A stretch of 64,000 nucleotides of DNA, from contig CAYFYE010000002.1 in NCBI GenBank assembly GCA_964347285.1, positions 11,075 to 75,074 of the forward strand. The letters run 5' to 3'. The notes beneath the pieces are model-generated. The model did no database searches. It saw only the letters and a program-made list of their open reading frames with translations, and had not been told where the DNA came from. The translations under genes were made by a program, and so were the position numbers. The stretch comes from an uncultured Acidimicrobiia bacterium. GTDB taxonomy: Bacteria > Actinomycetota > Acidimicrobiia > Spongiisociales > JAOTWH01. Of this stretch, positions 4,110-56,692 are shown one piece after another (within the stretch, counting starts at the first letter, position 1; each line of letters opens with the position of its first letter).

Positions 4110-6227
4110 CTAGAGGAACTCGTTCGATCCGAGCGGAACGTAGGCGCGACCCGTGTACTCGAGGAGCATGCGGTGGGCCGAGAACGGCGCCACCAGGGTC
4201 GCCAGCGATTCCTTCATGCGCGCCACCCACCCAGTCGGGATGCCGTCGGCGTCTCTTTCGTAGTACAGCGGGATGACGTCCTGCTCCAGCAGGTCGTAAA
4301 GCTCGGCAGCCGCTTCGTCGTCGGTGGCCGCGTCGGCGCCGAATCCCCAGCCGTTGAGACGGTTCCATCCCTCCACCCACCAGCCGTCGAGGACACTCAG
4401 GTTGAGTCCACCGTTGGCCGCCGCCTTCATGCCCGATGTACCGCTCGCTTCGAGCGGCGGTCGGGGCGTGTTGAGCCACACATCGGCCCCGACGACGAGC
4501 ATCCGGGCCAGCTCCATGTTGTAGTCCTCGATGAAGAAGATGTGCTCGCCCAGCTCGTCGGTCAGGGACAGGTCGACAACGCCCCGGATGATCCCCTGGC
4601 CCTCTCGGTCGGCCGGATGGGCCTTGCCGGCGAAGATCACCTGGACCGGGCGCTCGGAGTCGGTGAGCAGGCGGGTGAGTCGATCCGGATCCATGAGCAG
4701 CAGGCCGGCCCGCTTGTAGGAAGCGAATCGCCGGGCGAACACCAGCGTCAGTCGTTCGGGGGGGAGCTGGTCGGCCACATGGCGCAGCCGGCCGGGAGCG
4801 AAGCCGTGCCGGGCTCGCTGGGCCTGGATGCGTCGCCTCAGGTCGCGCACCATCCGCTCCTTCTCGCGAACGTGGGCTCGCCACACCTCGGCGTCGTCGA
4901 CATCGTGGATGGCCTTCCATGCGTCGGGATCTCCGAGCGCCTCCGGCCAATCGGGTCCCAGGGCCCTTTCGAAGACGGTGTGGATTCGAGGGCCGGCCCA
5001 GGTGGGGATGTGAACGCCGTTGGTGATGCCGATCGCCGGACCACCGATCAGCTGGTGCCAGTCGCCGGTGGCAATCTCGGCGTGACGCTGACTGACGGCG
5101 TTGGTGATGGAGGTACTTCGTATGGCCAGACCGCTCATGTTGAAACCGTCGTCGCCGTCGACTCGACCCAGTCGCTCCATCGCAGACCACTCCAGGCCGG
5201 GGATGGCATCTTCGAGGTAGTAGCGCACCAGCGCTGGGTCGAATACCTCGTTGCCGGCCGGGACCGGGGTGTGGAGGGTGAACAGGGTATTGGCTCGAAT
5301 CCGGGCCAATGCTTCCTCCTCGGCCAGGCCCTCTTCTACGTACCGGGAGAGCCTCTCCAGCAGGCTGAAGGCGGCATGTCCTTCGTTGACGTGCCAGACC
5401 TTCGGCTTGAGGCCAAGCGCCTGCAACAGGCGCACCGCCCCGATGCCGAGGACCACTTCCTGACACAGCCTCATTTCCCGGCCACGGACGTAGAGGATGT
5501 GGGAGATGGGTCGATCGGCCGGATCGTTCTCGGCAACATCCGTGTCGAGAAGCAGGAGCGGTACCCGACCGACGTCGATGCGCCAAACCGCGGTGGCGAT
5601 CGTTCGACCGGGGAGGTCGACCTCGATCCGAATGGGTCTGCCATCGGTGCCGATGACCGGGCGCACCGGCCGGCGGGTCATCTCGATGTGGTGGTAGTGG
5701 TGCTGCTGCTCGCCGTCGTGGTCGACCTCCTGACGGAAATAGCCGCGTCGATAGAACAAGCCGATCCCGAGGAGCGGGAGGCCGAGGTCGGAGGCGGCCT
5801 TGGCGTGGTCACCGGCCAGCACGCCCAACCCTCCCGAGTAGAACGGCAGGGTGTGGTCGACGCCGAACTCTGCCGAGAGGTAGGCGATGCCATCGTCGAG
5901 GGCGGGGGCGTGATGGCGCTGATACCAGGTGTTCTGAGAAGACAGATAGAAGTCGAACTGCGCAAGGACCTCGTCGTACAGGTCGAGGAAGCGGGCGTTG
6001 TCCTGGAGCGCTTCCCAGGTTTCCGGTTCGACGCCGGCCATGACGCTGAGCGGGTTGCGGTTGTCGGTCCAGCGGACCGGGTCGATCCGGCTCCACAGGT
6101 CCCGTGCCTTCGGGTTCCACGTCCACCACAGGTTGTGGGAGAGGTCGTACAGGCGCGGGAACGCCCGGGGAACCTGGATCGGGCTGCCTGGTCCCGCTGG
6201 GATGCGATTGAAGAGTCTCTCGGCCAT
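4110..6227 (-). CDS. glgP: alpha-glucan (glycogen/maltodextrin) phosphorylase, GT35 family
   Basis: 705 aa; N-terminal [27 protein letters not shown], lysine/PLP region; convergent with aminotransferase. Confidence 0.9.
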
Positions 6228-13098: not shown

Positions 13099-13410
13099 CT
13101 ACTCGCGTTCCTCTTCCTCGACGGGCTCGGCCTCACAACCGGGACCGGGAGCCTCGGGGAGAGCCCCGGAACGATGCTGGTGCCATTCGGCCATCGACCT
13201 GATCACGAGCACGATCACGATGGCCACTCCCACCGCCGCCCCGAGGAAGCCGATCACGGCAAAGGTCACCTCACGCCCCGGGCACGATTCGGCAACGGCG
13301 GACGTCGTGGAGAGGCAGGACACCCGGGCCAGGTTGCGCCCGATCAGGGCTCCGGTGGCGGCCGCCGCCAGCACCGGCACCAGGAACCACGGGTTGGGGT
13401 AGCGCTTCAC
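13099..13410 (-). CDS. small hypothetical membrane protein (2 TM)
   Basis: GTG at 13410 overlapping upstream stop (GTGA); only the C-terminal 104 aa of ORF 13099..14106 look protein-like, rest R/G-rich artefact. Confidence 0.4.
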   Translation of the reverse strand: MKRYPNPWFLVPVLAAAATGALIGRNLARVSCLSTTSAVAESCPGREVTFAVIGFLGAAVGVAIVIVLVIRSMAEWHQHRSGALPEAPGPGCEAEPVEEEERE

Positions 13411-14156
13411 CGGCGCGGCCGCCCCCGCTCGTCGAGGCCGGCGGCCTCGAACACCTCGGGGGGCACGAGCTCGGGCGGTATCGGGTAACCCCGGGCCCGC
13501 TGTGGGAGCAGCGCTACCGCCGAGCGGGCCACGGCCCGACTCCACGACAGGCCGCCCAGGATGATCACGGCGGCCGCCAGGCCCACCCTTCCCGGCATCG
13601 GAGAGAACGCCACGGCGGCGCCCCCGAGCAGCGGTAGGAGGAGCCGCCCCAGCCACAGGCCCAGAGGCCCGCCCCGTCCGAGGAGAAGAGCGAGCACCGG
13701 CCCCGCAGCCGCCGCGACCCAGTGGATCGGTCCCAGGCCGGACGGAACCATCAGCGCCGCCCAGCCTGGCAGGGCCACGAGACCGATCAGCAGTACCACG
13801 GCCTGCGGGGGCGGACCGTCGGCCGAGGGCAGCCGGCGCAGCCAGTGGGCCCGGGCTATGGCGGCGACGGCGGCGGCCGCTGCAACCGTCGTCGACGCGG
13901 CCGGCCACGCGGAGTCGAGGCCCACCACCGCCGCCAGCACCACTTCGGTAGCGACGATGGCGATGGTGAGGCGCAGCGCCCATCGGGCCCGGGCCAGCAG
14001 CACGCCGGCGACGGCGACGACCGTCACGAGGAGGAGGTCGGTACCTAGCAGGATCGCCGAGCCCTCCGAGAAGGGCTCCGGGGCAAAGGCGAGGAGGACC
14101 GACCATGCAGCGGCCGAGATGACGAGTGCTACGGCGGCAATCGCAGGGCGGACCAT
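13407..14156 (-). CDS. hypothetical polytopic membrane protein
   Basis: ATG at 14156 (aa 62 of ORF 13407..14339); about 6 hydrophobic helices, A/L/V-rich; translationally coupled to downstream small membrane gene. Confidence 0.45.
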   Translation of the reverse strand: MVRPAIAAVALVISAAAWSVLLAFAPEPFSEGSAILLGTDLLLVTVVAVAGVLLARARWALRLTIAIVATEVVLAAVVGLDSAWPAASTTVAAAAAVAAIARAHWLRRLPSADGPPPQAVVLLIGLVALPGWAALMVPSGLGPIHWVAAAAGPVLALLLGRGGPLGLWLGRLLLPLLGGAAVAFSPMPGRVGLAAAVIILGGLSWSRAVARSAVALLPQRARGYPIPPELVPPEVFEAAGLDERGRPRR

Positions 14157-14236
14157 GACCCGATTATGGCGCCGGTCCGGGCGTGCCGGATGGGGGTCGG
14201 CAATCGAGGTGGGCGGCTCACCGGAGCCGACGGAGC

Positions 14237-14860
14237 TCATGGAGGCGGTGGGAACGGTGCTCCGCCGAGGTCGGGTGCCGGGGTCCACCGGCCGGCCTCG
14301 CGCCAGAGCGTCCCAGGAGACAACGAGATGATCGTGCAATGGTGCGGCTTGTCGGTCGGGAACTCCGAGGGGGCCCGTCCGGTGAGCATGATCAAACCGG
14401 CTTGGATGGGGTCCTGGTGCGATACCAGCACCAGATCGCCGCCCGGGTGGGCCCGAGCGTGATCGCGTACCGCTGCCGCAACACGTCGTGCCACGTCGGC
14501 GAGCGGCTCGGGCGAGAACGGGAGGCGAAACGGATCACGGTGGTAGGCGTCGATCTCGCCCGGGAACCGATCGGGGATCTCCCCCCAAGGCAGGCCCGCC
14601 CAGCGGTCGGCGAGGCCCCATTCCGTCAGCCGGACGTCCTCGACGACCGCATCGTCGGCGAGGACCACGGCCGTTTCCAGAGCTCGCTGCAGCGGGGACG
14701 AGATCACGGCCACCACCGTTCGCTGGGCGAGATGCCGGGCTGCCGCTTCGGCCTGGAGGCGCCCGGCCCGACTGAGCCCGAAGCCGGGAAGGGAGGCATA
14801 CACGATTCCTCCGGGGTTGTGCACCTCGCCATGGCGGACGAGATGGATGAGCCGTGACAC
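14237..14860 (-). CDS. histidine phosphatase family protein (phosphoglycerate mutase-like)
   Basis: N-terminal LVRHGE (RHG catalytic motif), second His region LVVSHQDPI. Confidence 0.75.
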   Translation of the reverse strand: MSRLIHLVRHGEVHNPGGIVYASLPGFGLSRAGRLQAEAAARHLAQRTVVAVISSPLQRALETAVVLADDAVVEDVRLTEWGLADRWAGLPWGEIPDRFPGEIDAYHRDPFRLPFSPEPLADVARRVAAAVRDHARAHPGGDLVLVSHQDPIQAGLIMLTGRAPSEFPTDKPHHCTIISLSPGTLWREAGRWTPAPDLGGAPFPPPP

Positions 14861-25836: not shown

Positions 25837-26625
25837 TTAGGCGACCGGCTCGGGGCGGCGCCGCTCCCGGATGGCCCGGAGGCCGGGAACATCCAGGCCG
25901 AGAGTATCGGCATGTGACAGGGCGCGGGCCAGACGCTCCGGTCCGCTGCGGCCCATCGCCTGGTGCTCTGGATCGGCGGCAAAGGCCTCGGCCATTCCCT
26001 CGATGAGGATCTCTCGGGGAAGCTCTCGTTCCACGAGCCGTTCCTGGATGTCGAGTATCTCCTCGGTCACGCGCCGGGCCAGATCCTGGTGTTGAGTCCA
26101 CAGCTCGCCGACCGTACCCCCAGTCTCCAAGCCGACGATGTTGGCAACCAGGACGTACAGGTTCTTGCGCACCAACTCGAGCGTCATCGCCTCCGAATCC
26201 ATCACCGGCACAGACGGAACGCCGATGGCCGAGAGAGCCTCGACCACGAGACCGGCAGTGGGCCCACCGACCCGGGTGGGCAGGATCACCCGGACGTCAC
26301 GTCCCGGCTTCTTCTCGAACCACACCGCCATCACGGTGGGCTCCTCGATGTGGTGAGCCTTCCAGTCACGGGGCAGGAGCTCGTTCTGGAGGAGACCGAC
26401 CCGGGGTCGCCACGGGGCCGGCAACCCGCCGAGCACTTCGTGGAGGTCCTTCTCGGCCACCGCCACGAGTACCAGTGCTGGTCCGGGTAGCTCGGCGGCC
26501 ATCGATCCGGGGTCGGTCTCCCGGGTGACCGGGTAGATCGGCCGACCGATACGGAGGAAGCCTCGGGCAAACACGCCGGCCATCTCTCCGATACCGATGA
26601 TGACGATGGGTGCGTGCCGCTTCAC
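25837..26625 (-). CDS. NAD(P)-binding Rossmann-fold protein (ketopantoate reductase/ProC-like)
   Basis: N-terminal IVIIGIGEMAG Rossmann motif; overall family uncertain. Confidence 0.55.
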   Translation of the reverse strand: MKRHAPIVIIGIGEMAGVFARGFLRIGRPIYPVTRETDPGSMAAELPGPALVLVAVAEKDLHEVLGGLPAPWRPRVGLLQNELLPRDWKAHHIEEPTVMAVWFEKKPGRDVRVILPTRVGGPTAGLVVEALSAIGVPSVPVMDSEAMTLELVRKNLYVLVANIVGLETGGTVGELWTQHQDLARRVTEEILDIQERLVERELPREILIEGMAEAFAADPEHQAMGRSGPERLARALSHADTLGLDVPGLRAIRERRRPEPVA

Positions 26626-35560: not shown

Positions 35561-36705
35561 TCTCGATTACGTCGGCCCGCCGTCTGGCCCGGACCAGGTC
35601 GGAACGAGCCGGTTACAGGGCCCGCCTCATCGTTTTCGTGTTGGTACCGGTGGCACTCCTGGTGATCGTCGGACTGGGCACCCTGCTGTCGGCTTCGTCG
35701 GTGACTTCGATCCGGGAGACGGGAGACTCTCTCTATTACTTCAAGCGACAGGCACTATGGGCCATTCTCGGTGTGGTTGCTCTGCTGGTTGTGGCCCGCA
35801 TTCCCTACCGCACCTATCAGCACCTGGCCGTACCGCTGCTCTTCGCCACCATCGCCGCCCTGGTCGTCGTGTTGGCCGTCGGAGACGTTCGAGGGGGATC
35901 GCAGCGTTGGCTCTCGATCGGTTCGATGAGCGTACAGCCCTCCGAATTCGCCAAGTTCAGCGTGGTCGCCTTCTTGGCCATGATCATGACGCGGCGAGAA
36001 GGCTCACTGCGGAGCTTCGGGGACTTCTTCTGGCCGGTATTGCTGTCGCTGGGCGTCGTGGGAGCGCTGGTGATGAAGCAGCCCGATATGGGAACGACCC
36101 TCATCATCGGAGGAGCAGCCTTTGCGGTTCTGATGGCCTCTGCGGCTCCCTTTCGGTACGTGTTCGGCTCGGCGGCGCTGGCTTCGGTAGCCGCCGCCGT
36201 GCTGGCGGCCGTGGCTCCGTATAGATGGGCCCGCATCACCAGCTTCCTCGATCCCTTCGCCGACAGTCTCGACACGGGTTTCCAGGCGGTCCAGAGCCTC
36301 GTGGCGCTGGGGACGGGGGGTATCTTCGGCGTCGGTCTTGGTCTGAGTCGGGCCCGGTGGTCCTTTCTCCCCAATGCTCACACCGATTTCATCTTCGCCA
36401 TCATCGGCGAAGAAACCGGCTTTGTCGGGGTCCTCGGCGTGATCGTGCTCTTCGTCTCTTTCACGGTGGCCGGAACGCTCATCGCCTTGCGGGCCGCCGA
36501 CCGCTTCGGCCGACTCTTGGGGATAGGCATCGTGGCTTGGTTGTCGCTTCAGGCGGTGGTCAATATCGGCGGCGTCGCCGGGATCGTTCCGATCACGGGC
36601 GTTCCGCTGCCCTTCATGTCGTTCGGCGGCAGCGCTTTGATGACCAACCTGGCAGCCGTGGGCGTGCTGGTGGCCATCGCCAGGGAGTCCCGGGAGGCGC
36701 GATGA
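35545..36705 (+). CDS. ftsW: peptidoglycan glycosyltransferase FtsW (SEDS family)
   Basis: GTG start; 10-TM SEDS pattern, QPSEFAKF, PFMSFGGSA motifs. Confidence 0.9.
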   Translation: MAGRVISITSARRLARTRSERAGYRARLIVFVLVPVALLVIVGLGTLLSASSVTSIRETGDSLYYFKRQALWAILGVVALLVVARIPYRTYQHLAVPLLFATIAALVVVLAVGDVRGGSQRWLSIGSMSVQPSEFAKFSVVAFLAMIMTRREGSLRSFGDFFWPVLLSLGVVGALVMKQPDMGTTLIIGGAAFAVLMASAAPFRYVFGSAALASVAAAVLAAVAPYRWARITSFLDPFADSLDTGFQAVQSLVALGTGGIFGVGLGLSRARWSFLPNAHTDFIFAIIGEETGFVGVLGVIVLFVSFTVAGTLIALRAADRFGRLLGIGIVAWLSLQAVVNIGGVAGIVPITGVPLPFMSFGGSALMTNLAAVGVLVAIARESREAR

Positions 36706-37781
36706 GTTACGCCATCGCCGCCGCCGGCACGGGCGGCCATGTCTATCCGGGCCTGGCCGTCGCCGACGCGTTGGTGGCCGAGGGGATCGATCAGGACGAC
36801 ATCGTGTTCTTCGGCGGCGATCGACTGGCCGCAGATGTGGTCCCCCCTGCCGGGTACCCCTATGTGCGGCTGACGCTCCAGGGTCTGCGCCGCTCGTTGA
36901 GCCCCGCCAATTTCCGGCTCCCGGGCGTGGTCGTGGCCGCGGCGAAACGGATACGCGAAGAGTTGGTCGAACGGAAAGTGGGCGCTCTCCTCGCCGTGGG
37001 AAGCTACGTGACGGTGAGCGCCGCCTTGGCGGCCCGGCGGGCCCGGGTCCCGCTGGTGATCCACGAACAAAACGCGTCGCCGGGCCTTGCCAATCGGCTG
37101 AGTGCCCCCTTGGCGAGCCGGGTCCTCGTAGCCTTTGCTCCGGCAGCCGCTCGCCTCAAGCGGGCCGAGGTGGTCGGGAACCCACTCCGGCCTCAATTCA
37201 TGGACTTCAACAGAGAAGCCCTGCGTCTCGGAGCCCGGGCTCGTTACGGACTCCCCTCGGACGCCATGGTCGTGGGCGTGCTGGGCGGAAGCCTGGGAGC
37301 CAGGGTTCTCAATGATGCGGCGGCGGCGCTGGTCGCTGGGCGCTTGCCGGGCCGTGCCGCCGTTCTCCATGTGGCCGGCCCGTCCGCCGCTGCCGAGATG
37401 CAACGGCGCGCTGAAGGCGCGTCGGTACCCTGGGTCGTTCTCTCGTTCGAGGAGGCGATGCAGGACTTCTACGCGGCATCAGACTTGGTCGTAGCCCGCG
37501 CCGGCGCTATGACCGTGAGCGAGCTGGCCGCAACCGGCACACCTTCGGTGCTCGTGCCGTTGGCCGCAGTGGCCCAGGAAGGAAATGCCGAAGTGCTGGC
37601 CGAGACGGACGGTGCCCGGATCGTCGCCGAGGACGAGGTGGAGTCGCTGCCGGAGGTGGTGGCCGAGCTGTTGGCCGATGCCGAGAGATTACGGGAGATG
37701 TCGTCCGGCGCCCTCGCCGTTGCCAGGAGCGACGCGGCACGCTGCGTGGCCGACGTGATGATCGAGGTGGCGGGTGACTGA
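36702..37781 (+). CDS. murG: undecaprenyldiphospho-muramoylpentapeptide beta-N-acetylglucosaminyltransferase
   Basis: ATGA overlap with ftsW; GGTGGHV N-terminal motif, HEQN. Confidence 0.9.
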   Translation: MSYAIAAAGTGGHVYPGLAVADALVAEGIDQDDIVFFGGDRLAADVVPPAGYPYVRLTLQGLRRSLSPANFRLPGVVVAAAKRIREELVERKVGALLAVGSYVTVSAALAARRARVPLVIHEQNASPGLANRLSAPLASRVLVAFAPAAARLKRAEVVGNPLRPQFMDFNREALRLGARARYGLPSDAMVVGVLGGSLGARVLNDAAAALVAGRLPGRAAVLHVAGPSAAAEMQRRAEGASVPWVVLSFEEAMQDFYAASDLVVARAGAMTVSELAATGTPSVLVPLAAVAQEGNAEVLAETDGARIVAEDEVESLPEVVAELLADAERLREMSSGALAVARSDAARCVADVMIEVAGD

Positions 37782-48612: not shown

Positions 48613-49505
48613 CCGGCGAGCGCCTCGACAAAGCCGTGGCCGTGCTGGCCGGTCTCAGCCGGACCCAAGCACGTAGGCTCGTCGAAGACCACGCCGCCCT
48701 TGTCGATGGCTCTCCGGCCCGGCCCACCGATCGGGTGACGCCCGGGGCGGTGATCGAGGTGGGGCTTCCCCCAGCCCCGGGCCGCCTCCTGCCCGAGCCG
48801 GTGCCGTTCGACGTGATCTGGGAAGACGAGTACTTGGCGATCGTCGCCAAGCCCTCCGGGGTCGTCGTGCATCCGGGTTCAGGCGCCCGGCGGGGCACCC
48901 TGGCGGCCGGATTGCTGCACCGTTGGCCCCAGCTGGAGGGGGTGGGGGAGCCGGATCGATGGGGCATCGTCCACCGCCTCGATCGGGAGACTTCGGGATG
49001 CCTGCTGGTGGCGAAGACCTCCGAGACGCTCGGAGCGTTGCGGGCGGCGCTGGCGCGCCGCGAGATCGAACGATCGTATTGGGTGCTCGTGCGAGGAGGA
49101 TTCGATGTCCCGGCCGGCACGGTGGATGCTCCGATCGGCCGCGACCGCCGTCATCCGACCCGCTTTGCCGTCGACCCGGCCGGCCGGCCGGCCCGCACCC
49201 ACTACCGGGTGGCGGCGCAATGGGATGAGCCGGCGGTTTCGCTCCTCGAGGTGCACCCCGAAACCGGGCGGACCCATCAGATCCGGGTACACCTGCTGTC
49301 CATCGGGCACCCCGTCGTCGGCGACCGCACCTACGGACGGGTCCCCGGCCTGGGCTCGAAACGGGTATGGCTCCACGCCTTCCGCCTGGAACTGAGGCAC
49401 CCGATCAGCGGCCAACCCATCGACGCCGGCGCACCTCTCCCCGACGAATTGCGCGACGATCTCCGCAATCTGGGTCCCCCCGACCGGGGTGAGCTGCCCG
49501 ACTAG
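48564..49505 (+). CDS. rluD: RluA-family 23S rRNA pseudouridine synthase (RluD-like)
   Basis: GTG 48564 aligns with E. coli RluD N-terminus (TVGAELAGERLDKAV vs TVSENQLGQRLDQAL); HRLDRETSG catalytic Asp motif; S4 domain; overlaps lspA by 49 nt. Confidence 0.85.
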   Translation: MGGPTELCRYTVGAELAGERLDKAVAVLAGLSRTQARRLVEDHAALVDGSPARPTDRVTPGAVIEVGLPPAPGRLLPEPVPFDVIWEDEYLAIVAKPSGVVVHPGSGARRGTLAAGLLHRWPQLEGVGEPDRWGIVHRLDRETSGCLLVAKTSETLGALRAALARREIERSYWVLVRGGFDVPAGTVDAPIGRDRRHPTRFAVDPAGRPARTHYRVAAQWDEPAVSLLEVHPETGRTHQIRVHLLSIGHPVVGDRTYGRVPGLGSKRVWLHAFRLELRHPISGQPIDAGAPLPDELRDDLRNLGPPDRGELPD

Positions 49506-50527
49506 CCGAAGAAGGTGCGGGCCACGTCGTAGAGGCTCTGGGGCACGCCCCGCACCTCGGCACAGGCCTCCTCGAGTGGAACGGCCGTGATGTTCGGGCC
49601 GCGCGAGGCGACCATGACGCCCGAGGCTCCGTCGGCGGCGAAATCGGCGGCCCATACTCCGAGGCGAGTGGCTAGGACTCGGTCGAACGCGGTCGGGACC
49701 CCGCCCCGTTGCACGTGCCCGAGAACGGTGACCCGGCTCTCAAAGCCGGTCAGCTTTTCCAGCTCGGGGGCGATCTGGTAGGCGACCCCGCCGAGGCGGG
49801 CGAAGCCGAAGACGTCGGTCTCCACCGCCCGCTCGTGGCCCGGGGGCGGCTCGACCCCTTCGGCAACGACGACGATCGAGTACGTCCGGCCCCGGCGGTG
49901 CCGCCTCTTGATCGTGGTGGCCACCTCGTCGAGGTCGTAGGGGATCTCCGGGACGAGAATGGCATCGGCCCCGGCTGCGATACCGGAGTGGACGGCAATC
50001 CAACCCTTGGTGCGGCCCATCACCTCCACGATCATCAGGCGGTTGTGCGCCTCGGCGGTGGTGGTGATGCGGTCGATCGCCTCGGTAGCGATCTCCACGG
50101 CGGTGGTGAAGCCGAAGGTGATGTCCGTGCCGGCGATGTCGTTGTCGATGGTCTTGGGGACTCCGACGACGGCCAGGCCCTCTTTGGCGAGGCGAAGGGC
50201 GGTGCGCAGGGTGCCGTCACCTCCGATCACGATGAGACGCTCGATGCCGTTGCGCTCGATCGTGGCCCGGATGCTCTCATAGCCTTCGCCCTGCTCGTAG
50301 GGGTCGCGACGCGATGTGCCCAGGATCGTTCCGCCCCGCTGCAGGATGCCCCGCACGTCATCGCGATCGAGTGGACGGACGTTCCCCTCCATGAGGCCGT
50401 CCCAGCCGTTCAGTACGCCGACCACCTCGGCGTCGTGGACCTCGGTGGCGCGCGATACCACCCCGCGGATGACGGCGTTCAGACCGGGGCAGTCCCCGCC
50501 GGCTGTGAGTACCCCGATGACATCCAT
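49502..50527 (-). CDS. pfkA: 6-phosphofructokinase, actinobacterial ATP-type signature (Gly104/Lys124 equivalents)
   Basis: GGDGT and PKTIDND motifs, 341 aa. Confidence 0.85.
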   Translation of the reverse strand: MDVIGVLTAGGDCPGLNAVIRGVVSRATEVHDAEVVGVLNGWDGLMEGNVRPLDRDDVRGILQRGGTILGTSRRDPYEQGEGYESIRATIERNGIERLIVIGGDGTLRTALRLAKEGLAVVGVPKTIDNDIAGTDITFGFTTAVEIATEAIDRITTTAEAHNRLMIVEVMGRTKGWIAVHSGIAAGADAILVPEIPYDLDEVATTIKRRHRRGRTYSIVVVAEGVEPPPGHERAVETDVFGFARLGGVAYQIAPELEKLTGFESRVTVLGHVQRGGVPTAFDRVLATRLGVWAADFAADGASGVMVASRGPNITAVPLEEACAEVRGVPQSLYDVARTFFG

Positions 50528-50535
50528 CGGTCGGT

Positions 50536-51684
50536 CTAATACAGGAACATGGGCTTGCCGGGGACGTGGCGCACCTTGGGCCGATACTGCCGGACGTCGT
50601 AGAGCTCTTCGACATCGACGTGCTTGGCCCCCGCGCCGGTCACGGTGATGGGCACGTTCGTGTAGATGCCGCTGCGCAGTGAGACCATCCGCCCCGCCGA
50701 GCCCTCGACGGCCAGATCGGCCGCCATGACCGCATAGTTGGAAGCCACCATCAGATCGAGCGAGTCGGGACTCCCGGACCGCATGAGGTAGGCGAGCCGC
50801 TGATTGATGACGTTGACCCCGGTCAGCTCCTTGATCATCTCCCCGCAGATGACCCCGATGCCGCCCAGCTTGCGATGCCCAAAGGCGTCTTCCTCGCCCG
50901 AAAGGACCAGGTCTCCTCCCTCGATGACGGCGCCCTCGGAGATCGTCAGCATCGCATAGTTCGACGGGTTGGCCGCCCGGTCTTCCATGAGGAGGTCGGA
51001 CAGCCGCTTGATGTCCACGGGCACTTCCGAGATCACGGCTCGATCGACTCCGGCCAGGTAGGCGGTGACCAGGGAGGTCTCGCCGCTGTACCGGCCGAAC
51101 AGCTCGACGACTGCGATGCGCTCGTGGGACCCGGCGCTGGTCCGCAGGTTGTGGATGAACTCCACGCCGCGGGTGATGGCGGTGGAGAAGCCGATGCAGT
51201 AGTCGGTGCCGTGGACGTCGTTGTCCATGGTCTTGGGGATGCCCACGATCGGCACGCCCTCCTGGTGGAGGCGGAGCGCGTACGACAGGGTGTCGTCCCC
51301 ACCGATGGGGATCAGGACGTCGAGCTTCAGTGACTCGATGACCGCCAAAACGTGGTCGGTGAAGTCGAAGGGACCCTCTCCGGTCGCCTCGTCCGCCAGG
51401 AACTCGGGGACCTCGGCGGGGCGTACGTTGCTCGGGTTGGTGCGCGAAGTGTGAAGAACGGTCCCGCCGCTGCGATCGATCGTGCGCACCACTCCTTTGT
51501 CGAGAGGGACGATGTTGGCCGCAGCACTGTCCGGGTCGTCGAGGTTGGTGCTCAGCAGCCCGTCCCAGCCCCGGCGGATGCCGATGGTCTCGTGTTCGTC
51601 GTCGGTCACGCGGTACACCGCCGCCTTGATGCAGGCATTCAGGCCGGGCACGTCACCGCCTCCGGTGAGGATCCCGATGCGCAT
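50536..51684 (-). CDS. phosphofructokinase paralog with PPi-type signature (Asp104/Lys124 equivalents)
   Basis: ATG 51684 (aa 40 of ORF); GGDDT and PKTMDND motifs, 382 aa. Confidence 0.8.
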
Positions 51685-52604
51685 TAGCCGGCCGCCTCTT
51701 CGTATACGGCGTGGAAGCGGCGGTAGGCCTCGCCGATCTTGGCGGCCGCCGCCTCGCGTCCCAGGTCGCCCTTGACGAACTCGTCTATTCCCGGGCCCCA
51801 AATCGTCCTTCCTATGGCGAACCCGATATAGCCGTCGACCCCGGCTCCCATCTTCAGCCAGTGCTCGACGGCCCCATCATCGGCTCCCCGGCCGAGCACG
51901 ACCGCCTTGACATCGTCCCGGCCCCCACCTCGGATCAGCCCGGCCAGGAGTTCGCAGCTGCGGCTGCGGTCGAGGCCCTCGATCTTCCAGATGTCGGGTT
52001 CGATGCCGGCCGTCTGGATCTCGCTGATCGACTCCAGGGTGAGGGCGGGACGGAGCTCGGTGTCGTAGGCGGCGGCATCGCCTCCCACCAGCTCGAGCTG
52101 GCGGTCGCTGGCGGGCACCAACAGCTCGAAGAGGAACTTGCGGTCGTGCTGATGAAGCCAATCCGACAGGCGCTTGAGCCGTTCCGACTGGGCCGACTTG
52201 TCGGCAGGGTCGTCGTCCGGATTCCATCGCACCAGCACTTTGGCAAACGAGGGGTCGTACTTCTCGATGTGAGCCGCGAAGTCCTCTCCGAACTCGAAGT
52301 CGAAGACGTCTTGGCCCGACTTCTCCACGGGCATGGCCAGCGTGATGTCCAGCTCCTTGGCCCGGAAGGCGACGTCGGCTCCCATCTCTTCGTCGACCAG
52401 GATGCCGGCACCGGGAAGGGAGCCGTTTCCGGCTGCCGTCAGGAAACCCTCGAAGACGAGCATCTTGGCGTCGCGCAACCTCTCCTGATCCTCGGCTGAT
52501 GGTGTTCCTTCGATGCCGAAGCGCTTGCGAAAACTGCCCCGATGGTCGAACGCGAGGATGAAGAGCTTGCCCTGGTACCCGAGTTGCATGTCCCACTCCT
52601 TCAT
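51684..52604 (-). CDS. class I aldolase-fold protein (LacD/DUF2090-like)
   Basis: N-terminal [14 protein letters not shown] resembles LacD ISALAFDQRGAL region; TIM-barrel-like composition; 4-nt overlap (ATGA) with downstream PFK paralog. Confidence 0.5.
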
Positions 52605-52745
52605 CGAGTGCGGCGCCGAGGATACCGCCGTCGAGAGCGGCGACTGGGACCGGGCCCCTCAGATGATGGAGCCTCGACCCGAGGAGGGGGTGGGGGCCTG
52701 GTAGCCTCGAATTGCCCGACCGGGCACGGATGACTGTGGGGAACG

Positions 52746-52883
52746 GTGGAAGGCGAGGCCGAGCCGACCGAGGCCAGTGAGGAGGAGCATCCCAAGGGCA
52801 CGCTGGTGCTGCTCGTCGGCTTCATTCTCCTCATCGTCGTGCTCTGGCTGTGGACGTACGCCACCTTGCTGGTGCGGGCTTAG
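52746..52883 (+). CDS. cbaD: cytochrome ba3 oxidase subunit IIa (CbaD-like) small single-TM protein; not in supplied ORF track (sub-threshold length, most likely)
   Basis: Frame opened after TGA 52731-33; EEEHPKGTLVLLVGFILLIVVLWLWTYATLLVRA closely parallels Thermus CbaD MEEKPKGALAVILVLTLTILVFWLGVYAVFFARG (from memory); stop TAG 52881-83 is 2 nt before subunit II ATG; start codon uncertain (GTG 52746 or downstream). Confidence 0.55.
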   Translation: MEGEAEPTEASEEEHPKGTLVLLVGFILLIVVLWLWTYATLLVRA

Positions 52884-52885
52884 AC

Positions 52886-53359
52886 ATGGCCCTCAAGGTG
52901 GAGAGATACGAGCGGATCTTCCTCTACCTCACCGTGGTCGTGCTCGTCGCCGGCATCGTTGCGATCGTCCTCAGCGTCGCCGAGGCCAACATCCACCTCC
53001 CCTCGACCGAAGACCGGATCGATCCGCGCCGGGTCGAGGAGACGCCGCCATTCGACGACCCCGGCGTCTTCCAGGCCGGGCCCGACGAGTTTCAGGCGGT
53101 CGTCATCGCTCGGGCCTGGTCATTCGAACCGGCTGAAGTGCGGGTCCCGGCCGGGGCGGAGGTGGAATTCGTCATCACCTCGGCCGACGTCCTGCACGGG
53201 TTTCTGATCCTGGACACCTCGGTCAATGCGATGGTGATCCCCGGCCAGGTGACCAGGGTGACTACGACGTTCGACGAAGCCGGTGAGTACGAGATCGTGT
53301 GCCACGAGTACTGCGGGATCGGCCATCAAGGTATGTTCGGAAAGGTGGTGGCGGAATGA
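52886..53359 (+). CDS. cbaB: cytochrome ba3-type oxidase subunit II (CuA)
   Basis: Single TM then cupredoxin domain; CuA ligands H...CHEYCGIGHQGM; about 157 aa like Thermus CbaB. Confidence 0.85.
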   Translation: MALKVERYERIFLYLTVVVLVAGIVAIVLSVAEANIHLPSTEDRIDPRRVEETPPFDDPGVFQAGPDEFQAVVIARAWSFEPAEVRVPAGAEVEFVITSADVLHGFLILDTSVNAMVIPGQVTRVTTTFDEAGEYEIVCHEYCGIGHQGMFGKVVAE

Positions 53360-55020
53360 CGTCGGCCGCCCCGGCGGCATCGTCTGTCCTGGACACGCTC
53401 GACGTCGACCAGCGGAAGTGGATTCGCCGGCAGCTCTACCTCGCCTTCGCCGGACTGGCGGTGGGCGTGCTGATGGGGCTGCTCCAGGTGCTGGAACGTC
53501 TCAACATAGACCTGTACGACGAGGTCCAGCTACAGAGCTACTACCAGGGCCTCACCATGCACGGCGTGGCGACGGCCATCGTGTTCACGTTTACGTTCTC
53601 CAATGCGTTCCTGGCGCTCGCCACGGCTCGGGGACTGGGCCGGCCCCTCGCCTCCACCAACCTCGTCATCGGTTCGTTCGTCACGGCGGCCCTGGGCCTG
53701 GTGCTGGCACTGGCGGCGATGGTGACCAACTCGGCCACCGTCCTCTACACGTTCTACGCCCCCTTGGAAGCCAGTTCGCTGTTCTATCTGGGGGCGGTGC
53801 TGTTGGTGGTGTCGACGTGGCTGGTCTCGGTCAATCAGCTGCTCACCCTCCGGGCCTGGCGGCGCCAGCATCCCGGTGAGCGAATCCCGCTCCTGGCTTT
53901 CACGTCGATCGTCACCTATTTGATGTGGGATCTGGCTTCGGTGGGAATCGCCGTCGAGGTGGTGGTCTTCCTGTTGCCGTGGGCCCTGGGCTGGGTGGCG
54001 GGCACCGATCCCTTGCTGACCAGGACCCTGTTCTGGTTCACCGGCCATCCGATCGTCTACTTCTGGCTGCTGCCCGCCTACGTGAGCTGGTACATGATGG
54101 TGCCCCGGCGGGCCGGAGGGAAGCTGTACAGCGACGCCATCGTGAGAGCGGTCTTCATCATGTTCCTCTTGCTCTCCACGCCGGTCGGCCTGCACCACCA
54201 GTTCACCGACCCGGGCGTGGACAGCGGCTTGAAGTTCGTGCACGCCATCCTCACCTTCGCCGTCTTTTTCCCGTCCATGGTCACCGCCTTCACCCTCCTC
54301 GCCGCATTCGAGAACGGGGGCCGGGCCCGGGGGGGCAAGGGATTGTTCGGCTGGATCCGCAAGCTTCCTTGGCGGGAGCCCTTCGTCGCCCCACAGCTGC
54401 TGGCCATGCTGGCCTTCACGGTGGGAGGGGCTACCGGGCTCATCAACGCCAGCTTTACCGTCAATCTCGTGGTCCACAACACCGCGTACATACCGGGCCA
54501 CCTCCATCTGACCGTCGGCACGGCGGTGGCCCTGTCGTTCATGGGCATCTCCTACTGGCTGGTGCCTCACCTCACCGGTCGGCGGCTGTTCTCCGATGGG
54601 ATGGCCGTTCTCCAGGCCTGGCTCTATTTCGCGGGGGTGCTGTTGATGTCCCGGGGTCTGATGGGTGCCGGCCTCGAAGGGCAGCCCCGGCGGGTGCCCG
54701 CCAACTCCATTCCCTACCGCCAGGAGGGCTGGTCGACGTTCGATGCGCTCACCGGCCTCGGGGGCGTGCTCATGGTGATCAGCGCCGCCCTGTTCTTCTG
54801 GAACATCATCGCTACGGTGCGCAACCGGGAGCCGGCCCAGGGTGAGGAGCTCACGTTCTCCCTCAGCGAGACCATTCACGGTGCCGACGTGGCTCCTCCA
54901 GCGTTGGATCGCCTCGGCGTGTGGGTCCTGGCGGCGGTCGCCCTGGTGCTCGTTGCCTATCTGCCGGCGCTGGTCACCCAAGGCATCGATCTGAGCTCGC
55001 CCGGCTTCTCCCTGTTCTGA
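53356..55020 (+). CDS. cbaA: cytochrome ba3-type (B-family) oxidase subunit I
   Basis: ATGA overlap with cbaB; 554 aa 13-TM; heme/CuB His motifs (WFTGHP, HHQF, HNTAYIPGHLHL). Confidence 0.9.
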   Translation: MTSAAPAASSVLDTLDVDQRKWIRRQLYLAFAGLAVGVLMGLLQVLERLNIDLYDEVQLQSYYQGLTMHGVATAIVFTFTFSNAFLALATARGLGRPLASTNLVIGSFVTAALGLVLALAAMVTNSATVLYTFYAPLEASSLFYLGAVLLVVSTWLVSVNQLLTLRAWRRQHPGERIPLLAFTSIVTYLMWDLASVGIAVEVVVFLLPWALGWVAGTDPLLTRTLFWFTGHPIVYFWLLPAYVSWYMMVPRRAGGKLYSDAIVRAVFIMFLLLSTPVGLHHQFTDPGVDSGLKFVHAILTFAVFFPSMVTAFTLLAAFENGGRARGGKGLFGWIRKLPWREPFVAPQLLAMLAFTVGGATGLINASFTVNLVVHNTAYIPGHLHLTVGTAVALSFMGISYWLVPHLTGRRLFSDGMAVLQAWLYFAGVLLMSRGLMGAGLEGQPRRVPANSIPYRQEGWSTFDALTGLGGVLMVISAALFFWNIIATVRNREPAQGEELTFSLSETIHGADVAPPALDRLGVWVLAAVALVLVAYLPALVTQGIDLSSPGFSLF

Positions 55021-55802
55021 TGAAAAGGGGAACAACTGCGCTGGTGTTGGCCCTCGTGGCGGTGCTCTCTGGGGCCTCGCCCGCCGCCGGTCAGGACGGG
55101 GAGGAGGTCTACCGGACGAACTGTGCCGGCTGTCACGGCCCCGATGGAGAGGGAGCGGAGGGAGTGTTCCCGCCCTTGGCCGGCAATGAGCGTATCCAGG
55201 ATTCCTCCTATGTGGGCCGGGTGCTGGCAGAGGGCCTGGCCGGCGAGCTCGAGGTAGATGGCGTCACCTACGACGGACAGATGCCGGCGTTCCCCACCCT
55301 GGGCCCGGCCGAGGTCGATGCGGTCATCGCCTACATCCAGGGTTTCGAAGCGGCGGTACCGGCCACCACCGCCGCTCAGGCCATCGTCGTCGATGGCGTC
55401 GGGGACGCTGCCCGGGGCCGAAATTTGTTCGAGGGCCGGGACGGATTGGTCAACGGGGGACCGGCGTGCGTCGCCTGTCATACCGCCGGCGACGTCGGCA
55501 ACCCGGCCGGGGGAGGCTTTGGGGGAGACCTCACCGACGCCTTCGAGCGTCTCGGCAGCGACGCGCTGGCGGCCGCAATCGTCCAGCCGGCGGGGGGCTC
55601 GATGGAGACGCTGTACGGGCCCGACCCGGCGACGCCCCAGGAGGTGGCCGACCTGGTGGCCTTCCTCGGAGGAGCAGCCACCCAGGGGCGAGGGCTCGAC
55701 GCAATCGTGCTGATCGGATTGATCGGACTCGGGGTCGCCCTTGCTGCCACCGCCTTCGCGCTGAAACCGCCACGGACTGAATCGGTGGGAGCAGAGCGAT
55801 GA
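55020..55802 (+). CDS. membrane-anchored diheme cytochrome c
   Basis: Signal peptide; two CxxCH (CAGCHG, CVACHT); C-terminal TM IVLIGLIGLGVALAATAFAL; start overlaps cbaA stop (TGATG). Confidence 0.8.
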   Translation: MKRGTTALVLALVAVLSGASPAAGQDGEEVYRTNCAGCHGPDGEGAEGVFPPLAGNERIQDSSYVGRVLAEGLAGELEVDGVTYDGQMPAFPTLGPAEVDAVIAYIQGFEAAVPATTAAQAIVVDGVGDAARGRNLFEGRDGLVNGGPACVACHTAGDVGNPAGGGFGGDLTDAFERLGSDALAAAIVQPAGGSMETLYGPDPATPQEVADLVAFLGGAATQGRGLDAIVLIGLIGLGVALAATAFALKPPRTESVGAER

Positions 55803-56692
55803 CCGGCGACGAGCTCCTCTACGGGGCCCTGCCCGGCGCGGCGATGATCGTCGCCTTGGTCACCTTGTTGTGGCGGCTGTTCGTCTCGGAGCAACCGCTG
55901 ACGGAGCGAATCCCGCCCGGCGACGACCGGGCGGCGCGGTGGGGATGGTTCTCGGTGCGATGGGGGCTGGGGCTGGCGCTGGCCACCCATCTGGTGGCGC
56001 TGGTGGTTCCCCGGAGCATCGCCGGGTGGAATGCCGTCGAGGCCCGCTTGTATCTCCTCGAAGGCACCGGCCTGGCCATAGGACTGTGGGCCGCAGTGGG
56101 CATCGTCATCCTCGGGGTGCGCTTCGTTCGGGGCCGGGCATCGAAACCGTCCTGGGCCGACTCAGTCGTGGTGGGCCTGGTGGTCGTCGTCGTGTTTTCC
56201 GGGATCGTCATCGCCGTCTTCCACCGCTTCGGATCGTTCTGGGGGGTCGAGGTGATGGTGCCCTACCTCTTTTCGCTGGCAGGTGGCGAACCCCGCCCCG
56301 AGCTGGTCGCCGACCTGCCGGTGGCGGCGAGGATCCACCTACTGGCCGGCTTCGCCCTGGTGGCGGTGTTCCCGTTGTCGCGGTGGCTGGCCGTGCCCGC
56401 TTCCTACGTGGTCGGGGCGTGGCAGATGCTGGCCGGGCCGATCCCGGCCGAAATCCCCCCCGAGGGTCGACGGGGAGGCGATCGTCTCGGCTGGGCGGCG
56501 GCCTGGGTGCGGGGGATCGCCATCGTGGCCTACTTCATCGTGGCCACGGTGTGGCTGCCCTCGTTGGTGTTCGATCGCATGGCCGACGCTCCCCAGTGGG
56601 CCCGCGATGTTGCCGGGTCAGGAGTGTGGCTGGTGGCGGTCGCGATCGGGGTGGCCCTGCTGAGGCGGTTGCAGCAGGCCGCCGAGATCTGA
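55799..56692 (+). CDS. hypothetical polytopic membrane protein (possible heme-b or oxidase-assembly subunit)
   Basis: ATGA overlap with cytochrome c gene; 6-7 TM, conserved His in helices (HLVALVVP, RIHLLAGF). Confidence 0.5.
   Translation: MTGDELLYGALPGAAMIVALVTLLWRLFVSEQPLTERIPPGDDRAARWGWFSVRWGLGLALATHLVALVVPRSIAGWNAVEARLYLLEGTGLAIGLWAAVGIVILGVRFVRGRASKPSWADSVVVGLVVVVVFSGIVIAVFHRFGSFWGVEVMVPYLFSLAGGEPRPELVADLPVAARIHLLAGFALVAVFPLSRWLAVPASYVVGAWQMLAGPIPAEIPPEGRRGGDRLGWAAAWVRGIAIVAYFIVATVWLPSLVFDRMADAPQWARDVAGSGVWLVAVAIGVALLRRLQQAAEI

Follow-up and report, generated by a model that had tools for sequence, protein, structure and literature searches.

Fructose-bisphosphate aldolase is a textbook enzyme of central metabolism. 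Its canonical forms (FBAs) belong to class I (PF00274), to the class II FbaA family (PF01116) and to the archaeal-type class IA FbaB family (PF01791). The aldolases of the LacD type, named for tagatose-1,6-bisphosphate, cleave fructose-1,6-bisphosphate (FBP) as well and are stereochemically promiscuous. The phosphofructokinases (PFKs) can be sorted by signature residues: Gly104 together with Lys124 marks the ATP-dependent PFKs of actinobacteria, the Streptomyces coelicolor and Mycobacterium tuberculosis enzymes among them. Asp104 with Lys124, in turn, has been associated with inorganic pyrophosphate (PPi) as phosphoryl donor (PMC3608648); for the PPi-dependent enzyme of Trichomonas vaginalis (TvPPi-PFK), the parts played by GGDD and KTID have been described. 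Much less has been said about DUF2090 (PF09863). In the searchable literature no source beyond the GapMind papers and a single Pseudomonas transcriptome preprint mentions it, and always in connection with inositol: the sole published proposal for its function, as the 5-dehydro-2-deoxyphosphogluconate (DKGP) aldolase of myo-inositol catabolism, concerns domains that are fused to IolC and genetically linked to inositol use (PMC9007349). The subject of this paper is a three-gene locus in which a DUF2090 protein is joined by two dissimilar PFKs. It lies in a stretch of 64,000 nucleotides (hereafter the window) of contig CAYFYE010000002.1 (assembly GCA_964347285.1), from an uncultured bacterium of the class Acidimicrobiia.

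We think it rather probable that these genes constitute a core module connecting fructose-6-phosphate (F6P), FBP and the pair dihydroxyacetone phosphate (DHAP) plus glyceraldehyde-3-phosphate (GAP), with a non-canonical class I FBP aldolase at its center. The DUF2090 protein itself is most likely, judging from its sequence and its relatives, a type of FBP aldolase that has gone unrecognized. The argument proceeds from observed gene identities, fold, aligned residues, motifs, conservation of operon and locus, and gene fusions to predicted substrates and phosphoryl donors. What makes the enzyme look like part of the organism's main F6P/FBP/triose-phosphate module is that its close relatives are fused or adjacent to trunk enzymes of the Embden-Meyerhof-Parnas (EMP) and pentose-phosphate pathways (PPP).

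The operon and its conservation

Three open reading frames (ORFs) of the minus strand fill positions 49502-52604, just as originally predicted, and their Pfam matches (DUF2090, PFK and PFK) have E-values far beyond chance. In the order of transcription, the locus reads:

52590-52849, unstranded: intergenic region on the 5' side of the operon, the presumed promoter region, divergent from a cupredoxin/COX cluster
51684-52589, minus strand: gene 1, predicted class I (Schiff-base) aldolase of the DUF2090 family, 301 aa (PF09863, AlphaFold2 model, Foldseek, LacD alignment)
50536-51684, minus strand: gene 2 (PFK2), divergent PFK-family kinase, 382 aa (PF00365, motifs, match to 9CIR)
49502-50527, minus strand: gene 3 (PFK3), actinobacterial-type PFK, 341 aa (PF00365, TIGR02483, NF002872)

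The longest ORF of gene 1 (306 aa) starts at 52604. Its sixth codon, the ATG at 52589, is probably the true start, because it is preceded at 6 nt by AAGGAG, because homologues share it, and because a database protein of 301 aa is 100% identical to the ORF over 98%. (Residue numbers of the DUF2090 protein refer throughout to the 306-aa ORF.) Genes 1 and 2 had been thought to overlap by 4 nt (ATGA); the junction in fact reads GGC-TAA-TGC, so that the stop TAA and the start ATG (51684-51682) share one nucleotide (TAATG). That ATG yields a gene 2 product of 382 aa, matching its orthologues. A longer ORF of gene 2, opening with TTG at 51801, was rejected as the gene: the orthologues are 382 aa long and share the downstream start. 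Only 8 nt separate PFK2 from PFK3, and PFK3 converges with a plus-strand ORF for an rluD-like pseudouridine synthase (end at 49505), the 4-nt overlap at 49502-49505 leaving no room for a terminator between these genes. The tight spacing and the recurrence of the same order in other genomes support the prediction that the three genes form one operon. Neither a consensus promoter nor a riboswitch or other Rfam element was detected in 52590-52849, and promoter/terminator, Rfam and tRNA scans yielded nothing informative near the operon.

The homologues for which a source organism is named come mostly from metagenome-assembled genomes (MAGs) of Acidimicrobiia, Ilumatobacter included. The arrangement dnaE / DUF2090-PFK2-PFK3 / rluD-lspA-(dksA)-ileS is seen again in many Acidimicrobiia genomes, and this recurrence marks the operon as a conserved housekeeping module rather than an accessory sugar island. 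The order PFK2-PFK3, with near-zero spacing, is kept in Acidimicrobiia. There are variants: DUF2090-PFK3 without PFK2 (loci L038 and L045, both Acidimicrobiia), PFK2-PFK3 without DUF2090 but with the same order and spacing (L089), a lone PFK2 (L087 and L088, from abundant lineages), and, in Ilumatobacter, a 745-aa eukaryote-type tandem PFK followed by DUF2090-PFK2. Scans of ORFs in the window turned up neither lac/gat/aga nor iol genes; the flanking genes examined at related loci include no iol-type families, and no sugar transporter, regulator or isomerase lies near the operon.

A predicted aldolase with a LacD-like fold and active site

Gene 1 matches PF09863 with an E-value of 4.6e-30 (105.2 bits against a gathering cutoff of 27). 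Its product has no Pfam match to PF00274, PF01116 or PF01791, and no NCBIfam model reaches its cutoff: the LacD models NF009498 and NF009065 give 38.4 bits (cutoff 184) and 16.3 bits (cutoff 458), and NF047869, for the bifunctional IolC/DKGP aldolase, gives 53.3 bits (cutoff 600) with a protein that stands alone, without a kinase fusion. By family model, the protein belongs to DUF2090 and not to LacD. Orthology to LacD is rejected.

At the level of the fold, the proposed likeness to LacD is supported. The AlphaFold2 (AF2) model is a TIM barrel (pLDDT 89.4, pTM 0.88) whose top Foldseek matches are LacD tagatose/fructose-bisphosphate aldolases (E ~1e-13, TM ~0.75), with a LacD-FBP complex (5F2G, by title) among them. 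YihT, a sulfofructose-phosphate (SFP) aldolase, and 8TNF, whose chain is named DUF2090 domain-containing protein, come next (E ~1e-12), and classical class I FBAs rank lower (E ~1e-9). (The study of sulfofucose from which 8TNF comes gives no detailed description of the DUF2090-named aldolase.) A search of the PDB with the single sequence returned DnaJ matches, which are spurious; a profile search is required for this protein.

Profile and MAFFT alignments set D20, R22, K122, E160 and K207 against the D/R/K/E/K of Staphylococcus aureus LacD, and the profile alignment sets G265-R266, part of a GR(T/A)xW motif, against LacD GRATW. Each of them is unchanged throughout 17 orthologues, and in a set of 23 diverse family members they are near-invariant; an additional conserved G-R-G at 238-240 lies in a region outside the aligned LacD fragment. 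We take K207 to be the counterpart of the Schiff-base lysine of LacD (~Lys205) and R266 to correspond to a ligand of the C1 phosphate in the LacD structures. Lys126 and Glu164 are the catalytic residues of Streptococcus pyogenes LacD (PMC9007349). Assignment of gene 1 to the Schiff-base aldolases that release DHAP is well supported as a prediction of mechanism class. In such a mechanism, the DHAP moiety would be held as a Schiff base on Lys207, with assistance from Glu160 and Lys122, and Gly265-Arg266 would bind the C1 phosphate. An identification as 2-keto-3-deoxy-6-phosphogluconate aldolase was rejected: there is no Edd, and the protein has a DHAP-type active site.

How close, then, is the protein to its described relatives? 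The LacD enzymes of S. pyogenes and S. aureus (3MHF, 5F2G, 3MYP) provide its best fold match and share with it an N-terminal AFD(H/Q)RG motif, in which position 21 is His in the window protein and Gln in LacD. On the other hand, identity to LacD is only 16-18%, the LacD models score far under cutoff, and the DUF2090 gene lacks the context of a lactose/galactose operon. With the IolC-fused DUF2090 domains it has PF09863 and the conserved catalytic Lys and Glu in common; it differs from them in standing alone, in lying beside PFKs and housekeeping genes without iol genes, and in its predicted co-product, GAP instead of malonic semialdehyde. With the canonical FBAs it would share the reaction and the position in the pathway, while belonging to another family within the aldolase TIM-barrel superfamily.

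Fusions and neighbors of the DUF2090 domain

Relatives were sought among 1.8 billion representative proteins, and what follows refers to the nearest 150 together with the relatives of one fusion. The nearest 150 are mostly standalone proteins of ~300 aa. Fused DUF2090 domains are 42-55% identical to the window protein. PFK is the partner in P0251 and in P0454 (aldolase domain 55% identical; PFK part with GGEDT/PKTIDND), 1-phosphofructokinase (FruK) in P0344 (over the TIGR03168 cutoff), and the class II fructose-bisphosphatase GlpX in P0253 (over the TIGR00330 cutoff) and P0392. FBP is the sole metabolite common to PFK, FruK and GlpX. A linkage to enzymes that make or use FBP is thus found in two forms, in an operon with two PFKs and in fusions to PFK, FruK and GlpX. 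The GlpX-DUF2090 protein P0253 (622 aa) occurs on 3 contigs, two of which are shown (L083:8001-9869 and L084:1899-3767, from ENA and JGI samples); its gene is monocistronic and sits in housekeeping surroundings with ribosomal-protein and rpoC genes. Of the top 120 clusters, 25 are fusions to glucose-6-phosphate isomerase (PGI), and one of these has 36 members; P0402, a PGI-DUF2090 protein, scores 850 bits on NF001211. ROK kinase, 6-phosphogluconate dehydrogenase (6PGDH) and 6-phosphogluconolactonase (Pgl) are further partners.

Gene neighborhoods extend this picture. A PFK-DUF2090 fusion gene lies two genes away from that for glyceraldehyde-3-phosphate dehydrogenase; PEP synthase is followed by DUF2090 at two loci in Solirubrobacterales (L015, L023); and the DUF2090 neighborhood with eno is conserved at 26 Thermoleophilia loci. 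At 15 Actinomycetota loci, DUF2090 is followed by purA-purD, a position near the site of the class II fba gene in many Actinobacteria; this serves only as a lead. One operon comprises ROK, PGI-DUF2090, RPE, 6PGDH, glucose-6-phosphate dehydrogenase (G6PDH), Pgl and RpiB-TKT, with a phosphatase-transaldolase fusion ahead of it; another comprises ROK-DUF2090, 6PGDH, G6PDH and Pgl. Since the PGI-DUF2090 operon already has a transaldolase domain, we rejected the idea that the DUF2090 protein substitutes for transaldolase.

The contig that encodes P0402 (JGI 3300047160, 74.6 kb) merits separate mention for its fusions: a HAD/S6PP phosphatase with transaldolase (657 aa), PGI with DUF2090 (860 aa), and RpiB with transketolase. 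The super-operon looks like a complete cyclic pentose-phosphate module.

The names that these proteins carry tell another story. Standalone homologues of ~300 aa (P0003, P0013, P0024 and others) are called myo-inositol catabolism protein IolC or 5-dehydro-2-deoxygluconokinase in JGI records, and have no kinase domain; across UniRef and JGI the homologues are named IolC, 5-dehydro-2-deoxygluconokinase, DKGP aldolase, or plain DUF2090. The inositol naming of the standalone proteins is a systematic misannotation.

Two phosphofructokinases with different signatures

PFK2 and PFK3 are 36% identical, and therefore ancient paralogues. When the key residues are read from an alignment to the Bacillus stearothermophilus PFK (in Escherichia coli numbering), the two differ in donor signature as had been foreseen: Asp104/Lys124 in PFK2, Gly104/Lys124 in PFK3.

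PFK3 is the more conventional. It matches PF00365 (E 4.5e-109) and exceeds the cutoffs of TIGR02483 (PFK_mixed; 434.5 against 430.55) and NF002872 (413.8 against 253). The predicted motifs GGDGT and PKTIDND are present in its translation, and GGDG[T/S] with PKTIDND is kept in every PFK3 orthologue found. D103, G104, K124, T125, D127, D129, R162, M169, G170, R171, E222, R243, H249 and R252 are in place, so that the canonical F6P ligands are all present. In Gly104/Lys124 and in its F6P ligands PFK3 is like the actinobacterial PFK_mixed ATP-PFKs (PfkA of S. coelicolor and of M. tuberculosis); it differs in that it shares an operon with a PPi-type paralogue and an aldolase, and is otherwise unremarkable.

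PFK2 also matches PF00365 (E 1.2e-64). It has the motifs GGDDT, PKTMDND and [G/A]YLMR, the first two of them in 120 of 120 orthologues, which bears out the PPi pattern assigned to the upstream paralogue. Residues D103, D127, D129, R72, R162, R171, E222 and R252 are intact. Position 249 is Tyr, as it is in the GYELR/GYEGR motifs of the T. vaginalis and Borrelia PPi-PFKs, and an 18-aa insertion follows residue ~77. The best PDB match, 9CIR (E 1e-42), has an insertion at the same place and is, according to a preprint, the PPi-PFK of the Asgard archaeon Ca. Prometheoarchaeum. With 9CIR and with the T. vaginalis (9DQM) and Borrelia (1KZH) enzymes, PFK2 shares GGDD(T), PKT(I/M)DND and G/A-Y-x-x-R; the PFK2 family, in distinction to these, has so far been seen in Acidimicrobiia and related MAGs alone. 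(From a 28-sequence alignment, AF2 gives a model of PFK2 with a pLDDT of 63, too poor for a fold search.) That PFK2 should use PPi and PFK3 ATP is well supported as a prediction.

A side observation concerns the Ilumatobacter locus (L003:3568-5805; Ilumatobacter sp. MAG, NZ_JASJCS010000009.1). There, a 745-aa tandem-domain PFK lies directly upstream of DUF2090-PFK2; elsewhere the 341-aa PFK3 sits downstream. With 970 bits on 6PF1K_euk (cutoff 708), it is, on this score, a eukaryote-type fused PFK in a bacterium.

The proposed pathway and what weighs against it

In the pathway that we favor, the DUF2090 protein would act as FBP aldolase, possibly cleaving sedoheptulose-1,7-bisphosphate (SBP) as well, and would be a non-orthologous replacement of canonical class I/II FBA. 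PFK3 would be an irreversible ATP-dependent 6-phosphofructokinase and PFK2 a reversible PPi-dependent one, which could drive glycolysis on PPi and also replace fructose-bisphosphatase in gluconeogenesis. Co-expression of the two kinases could conceivably, and in principle, interconvert ATP and PPi.

Several observations weigh against this scheme. Two arginines hold the 6-phosphate of F6P from across the subunit interface, and Arg243 is one of them; PFK2 has Ile or Val there, and Phe169 in place of Met169, in the window protein and in five aligned orthologues. PFK2 also falls under every curated NCBIfam PFK cutoff, including, by a wide margin, those of the PPi-PFK models TIGR02477, NF041103, NF005121, NF010675 and NF005482. 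These features set it apart from the PPi-PFKs to which it was compared above, and because of them its sugar-phosphate specificity may be for something other than F6P. The residue-104/124 rule, moreover, is a correlation and not a proof of donor. As for the aldolase, promiscuity of the LacD type means that FBP is not the sole possible bisphosphate; the 6PGDH and Pgl fusions are as compatible with a function tied to the PPP as with one in the EMP pathway; and the DUF2090 enzyme may be no more than auxiliary if its genomes also encode a canonical FBA (PF01116, PF00274 or FbaB). Finally, the PFK-DUF2090 fusion P0251 sits in a sugar-catabolic cluster (DeoR/epimerase/GatZ-like/MFS), from which it follows that some DUF2090 members serve specialized ketohexose routes.

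A more ambitious version can be put forward tentatively, as a possibility that we regard as doubtful: that the standalone DUF2090 clade is a widespread and so far overlooked family of glycolytic/gluconeogenic FBP(/SBP) aldolases, which took the place of canonical FBA in several lineages (Acidimicrobiia, Thermoleophilia and others, among them those with PGI, glucokinase, PFK and FBPase fusions), and that PFK2 represents a new subfamily of PPi-PFKs whose sugar-phosphate site has been rebuilt without Arg243, either hetero-oligomeric with the ATP-PFK or preferring a substrate other than F6P, such as sedoheptulose-7-phosphate (S7P).

Other explanations

The peculiarities of PFK2 invite two other explanations. 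One is a sedoheptulose branch, in which PFK2 would be mainly a PPi-dependent S7P kinase, the DUF2090 aldolase would cleave SBP, and PFK3 would be left to handle F6P, the whole amounting to a transaldolase-independent PPP. A route of this kind operates in cellulolytic clostridia. The loss of Arg243 and the presence of Phe169 would suit a PFK with a changed substrate, and DUF2090 is fused to, or in operons with, the PPP enzymes Pgl, 6PGDH, G6PDH, RPE and TKT; a bifunctional PPi-PFK in a transaldolase-less bacterium, as described in a preprint (10.1101/2025.04.04.647159), offers a precedent. Yet the PGI-DUF2090 super-operon already has a transaldolase-family domain, the fusions to GlpX, FruK, PGI and ROK kinase speak of hexose rather than heptose chemistry, and some Acidimicrobiia have DUF2090 with PFK3 only (L038, L045). 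We consider such a branch unlikely; it can coexist with the FBP pathway. The other explanation makes PFK2 and PFK3 partners in one hetero-oligomer, on the model of the alpha/beta pairs of plant PFP and yeast PFK, with PFK2 as a regulatory subunit or as one that would use Arg162 and Arg243 of PFK3 across the interface. The absence of Arg243, a neighbor-subunit residue in bacterial PFK, would then be accounted for, and the conserved PFK2-PFK3 order and near-zero spacing, retained even in the DUF2090-less locus L089, would make sense. Against a heteromer stand the other catalytic and substrate-binding residues examined in PFK2, which are intact (D103, D127, D129, R72, R162, R171, E222, R252), the lone PFK2 of abundant lineages (L087, L088), the DUF2090-PFK3 loci with no PFK2 nearby (L038, L045), and Ilumatobacter, in which the 745-aa eukaryote-type PFK stands in for PFK3; taken together, they make it quite improbable.

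The remaining two explanations take the aldolase as their point of departure. The original prediction had entertained a special branch for an alternative sugar such as tagatose: a PFK acting on tagatose-6-phosphate (or on psicose- or sorbose-6-phosphate) and a LacD-like aldolase cleaving the resulting 1,6-bisphosphate. The closest solved folds are indeed those of LacD tagatose-bisphosphate aldolases, and the cluster around P0251 is of the right sort. What makes a ketohexose branch very improbable for the window locus is that the LacD NCBIfam scores (38 and 16 bits) are far from their cutoffs (184 and 458), that no sugar transporter, regulator, isomerase or lac/gat/aga gene lies near the operon, that the operon occupies a dnaE-rluD housekeeping region conserved across the class, and that the relatives of the aldolase are linked to the EMP pathway and the PPP; a special branch accordingly finds no footing in the housekeeping locus, nor in the scanned ORFs, which hold no lac/gat/aga/iol genes. 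The current database label, by which the DUF2090 protein would be a DKGP aldolase of myo-inositol catabolism, is the least credible of all. It derives from IolC-fused DUF2090 domains that are genetically tied to inositol use (PMC9007349), an annotation that the UniRef and JGI names of the homologues follow. The window protein is not fused to IolC (53 bits on NF047869, cutoff 600), no iol-type families appear among the window ORFs scanned or in the flanks examined of related loci, and the proteins nearest to it either stand alone or have EMP/PPP enzymes, not IolC, as fusion partners.

What is new, and what would follow

The fold, the aldolase chemistry, and the ATP- and PPi-type PFK signatures are already known. 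Two things appear to be new: a predicted role as FBP aldolase for a large DUF2090 clade of standalone and EMP-fused proteins, and a family of PPi-type PFKs, divergent yet conserved, without Arg243 in the sequences aligned. Searches of the literature on the aldolases and PFKs of Acidimicrobiia, for statements of missing FBA and for LacD structure found nothing usable.

If the assignment of the aldolase is right, apparent gaps in glycolysis and gluconeogenesis would be closed wherever metabolism is reconstructed for the abundant Actinomycetota of soil, freshwater and the sea that are known mostly from MAGs; a widespread inositol-type misannotation would be corrected; and core metabolism would have yielded another case of non-orthologous displacement. 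Co-transcription of ATP- and PPi-type PFKs raises the question of how ATP- and PPi-driven glycolysis are balanced, and of reversibility at the PFK step. The natural fusions of the aldolase to PFK, GlpX and PGI are candidates for the biochemistry of substrate channeling.

The chromosomal setting

The window (~67% GC) is core chromosome of an Acidimicrobiia MAG. Its gene content includes a fab cluster, dinB, a MoxR module, the dcw cluster from mraZ to sepF, ileS and dksA, and the order continues with lspA, rluD, the three-gene operon, a cupredoxin/COX1/cytochrome c/NarI-like cluster, dnaE and htrA. The cluster that fills the gap between the operon and dnaE is:

52850-56692, plus strand: respiratory cluster of cupredoxin/COX2-like, COX1 (573-aa ORF), cytochrome c and NarI-like (PF02665) genes

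The cytochrome c protein has two matched stretches. Because dnaE directly adjoins the DUF2090 gene in other Acidimicrobiia (L001, L004-L006), this four-gene cluster looks like an unusual oxidase module that was inserted in a particular lineage.

Three minus-strand ORFs (13407-14339, 25837-26625 and 36549-37403) have gene-like GC3 and no Pfam match; the last of them, which lies opposite the ftsW/murG region and overlaps it, may be spurious. Among the related loci, L019 (from a MAG labelled Gemmatimonadota), L052 (labelled Acidobacteriota) and P0161 (labelled Ornithinicoccus sp.) carry genes of the Acidimicrobiia/Thermoleophilia type at 60-76% identity; they are probably mis-binned or mislabelled MAG contigs and not evidence of real taxonomic spread. 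The contig of the operon also has, at 4110-6227 on the minus strand, a gene of the alpha-glucan phosphorylase type (DUF3417 + Phosphorylase), which suggests that the operon's pathway is fed with hexose phosphate from glycogen or maltodextrin.

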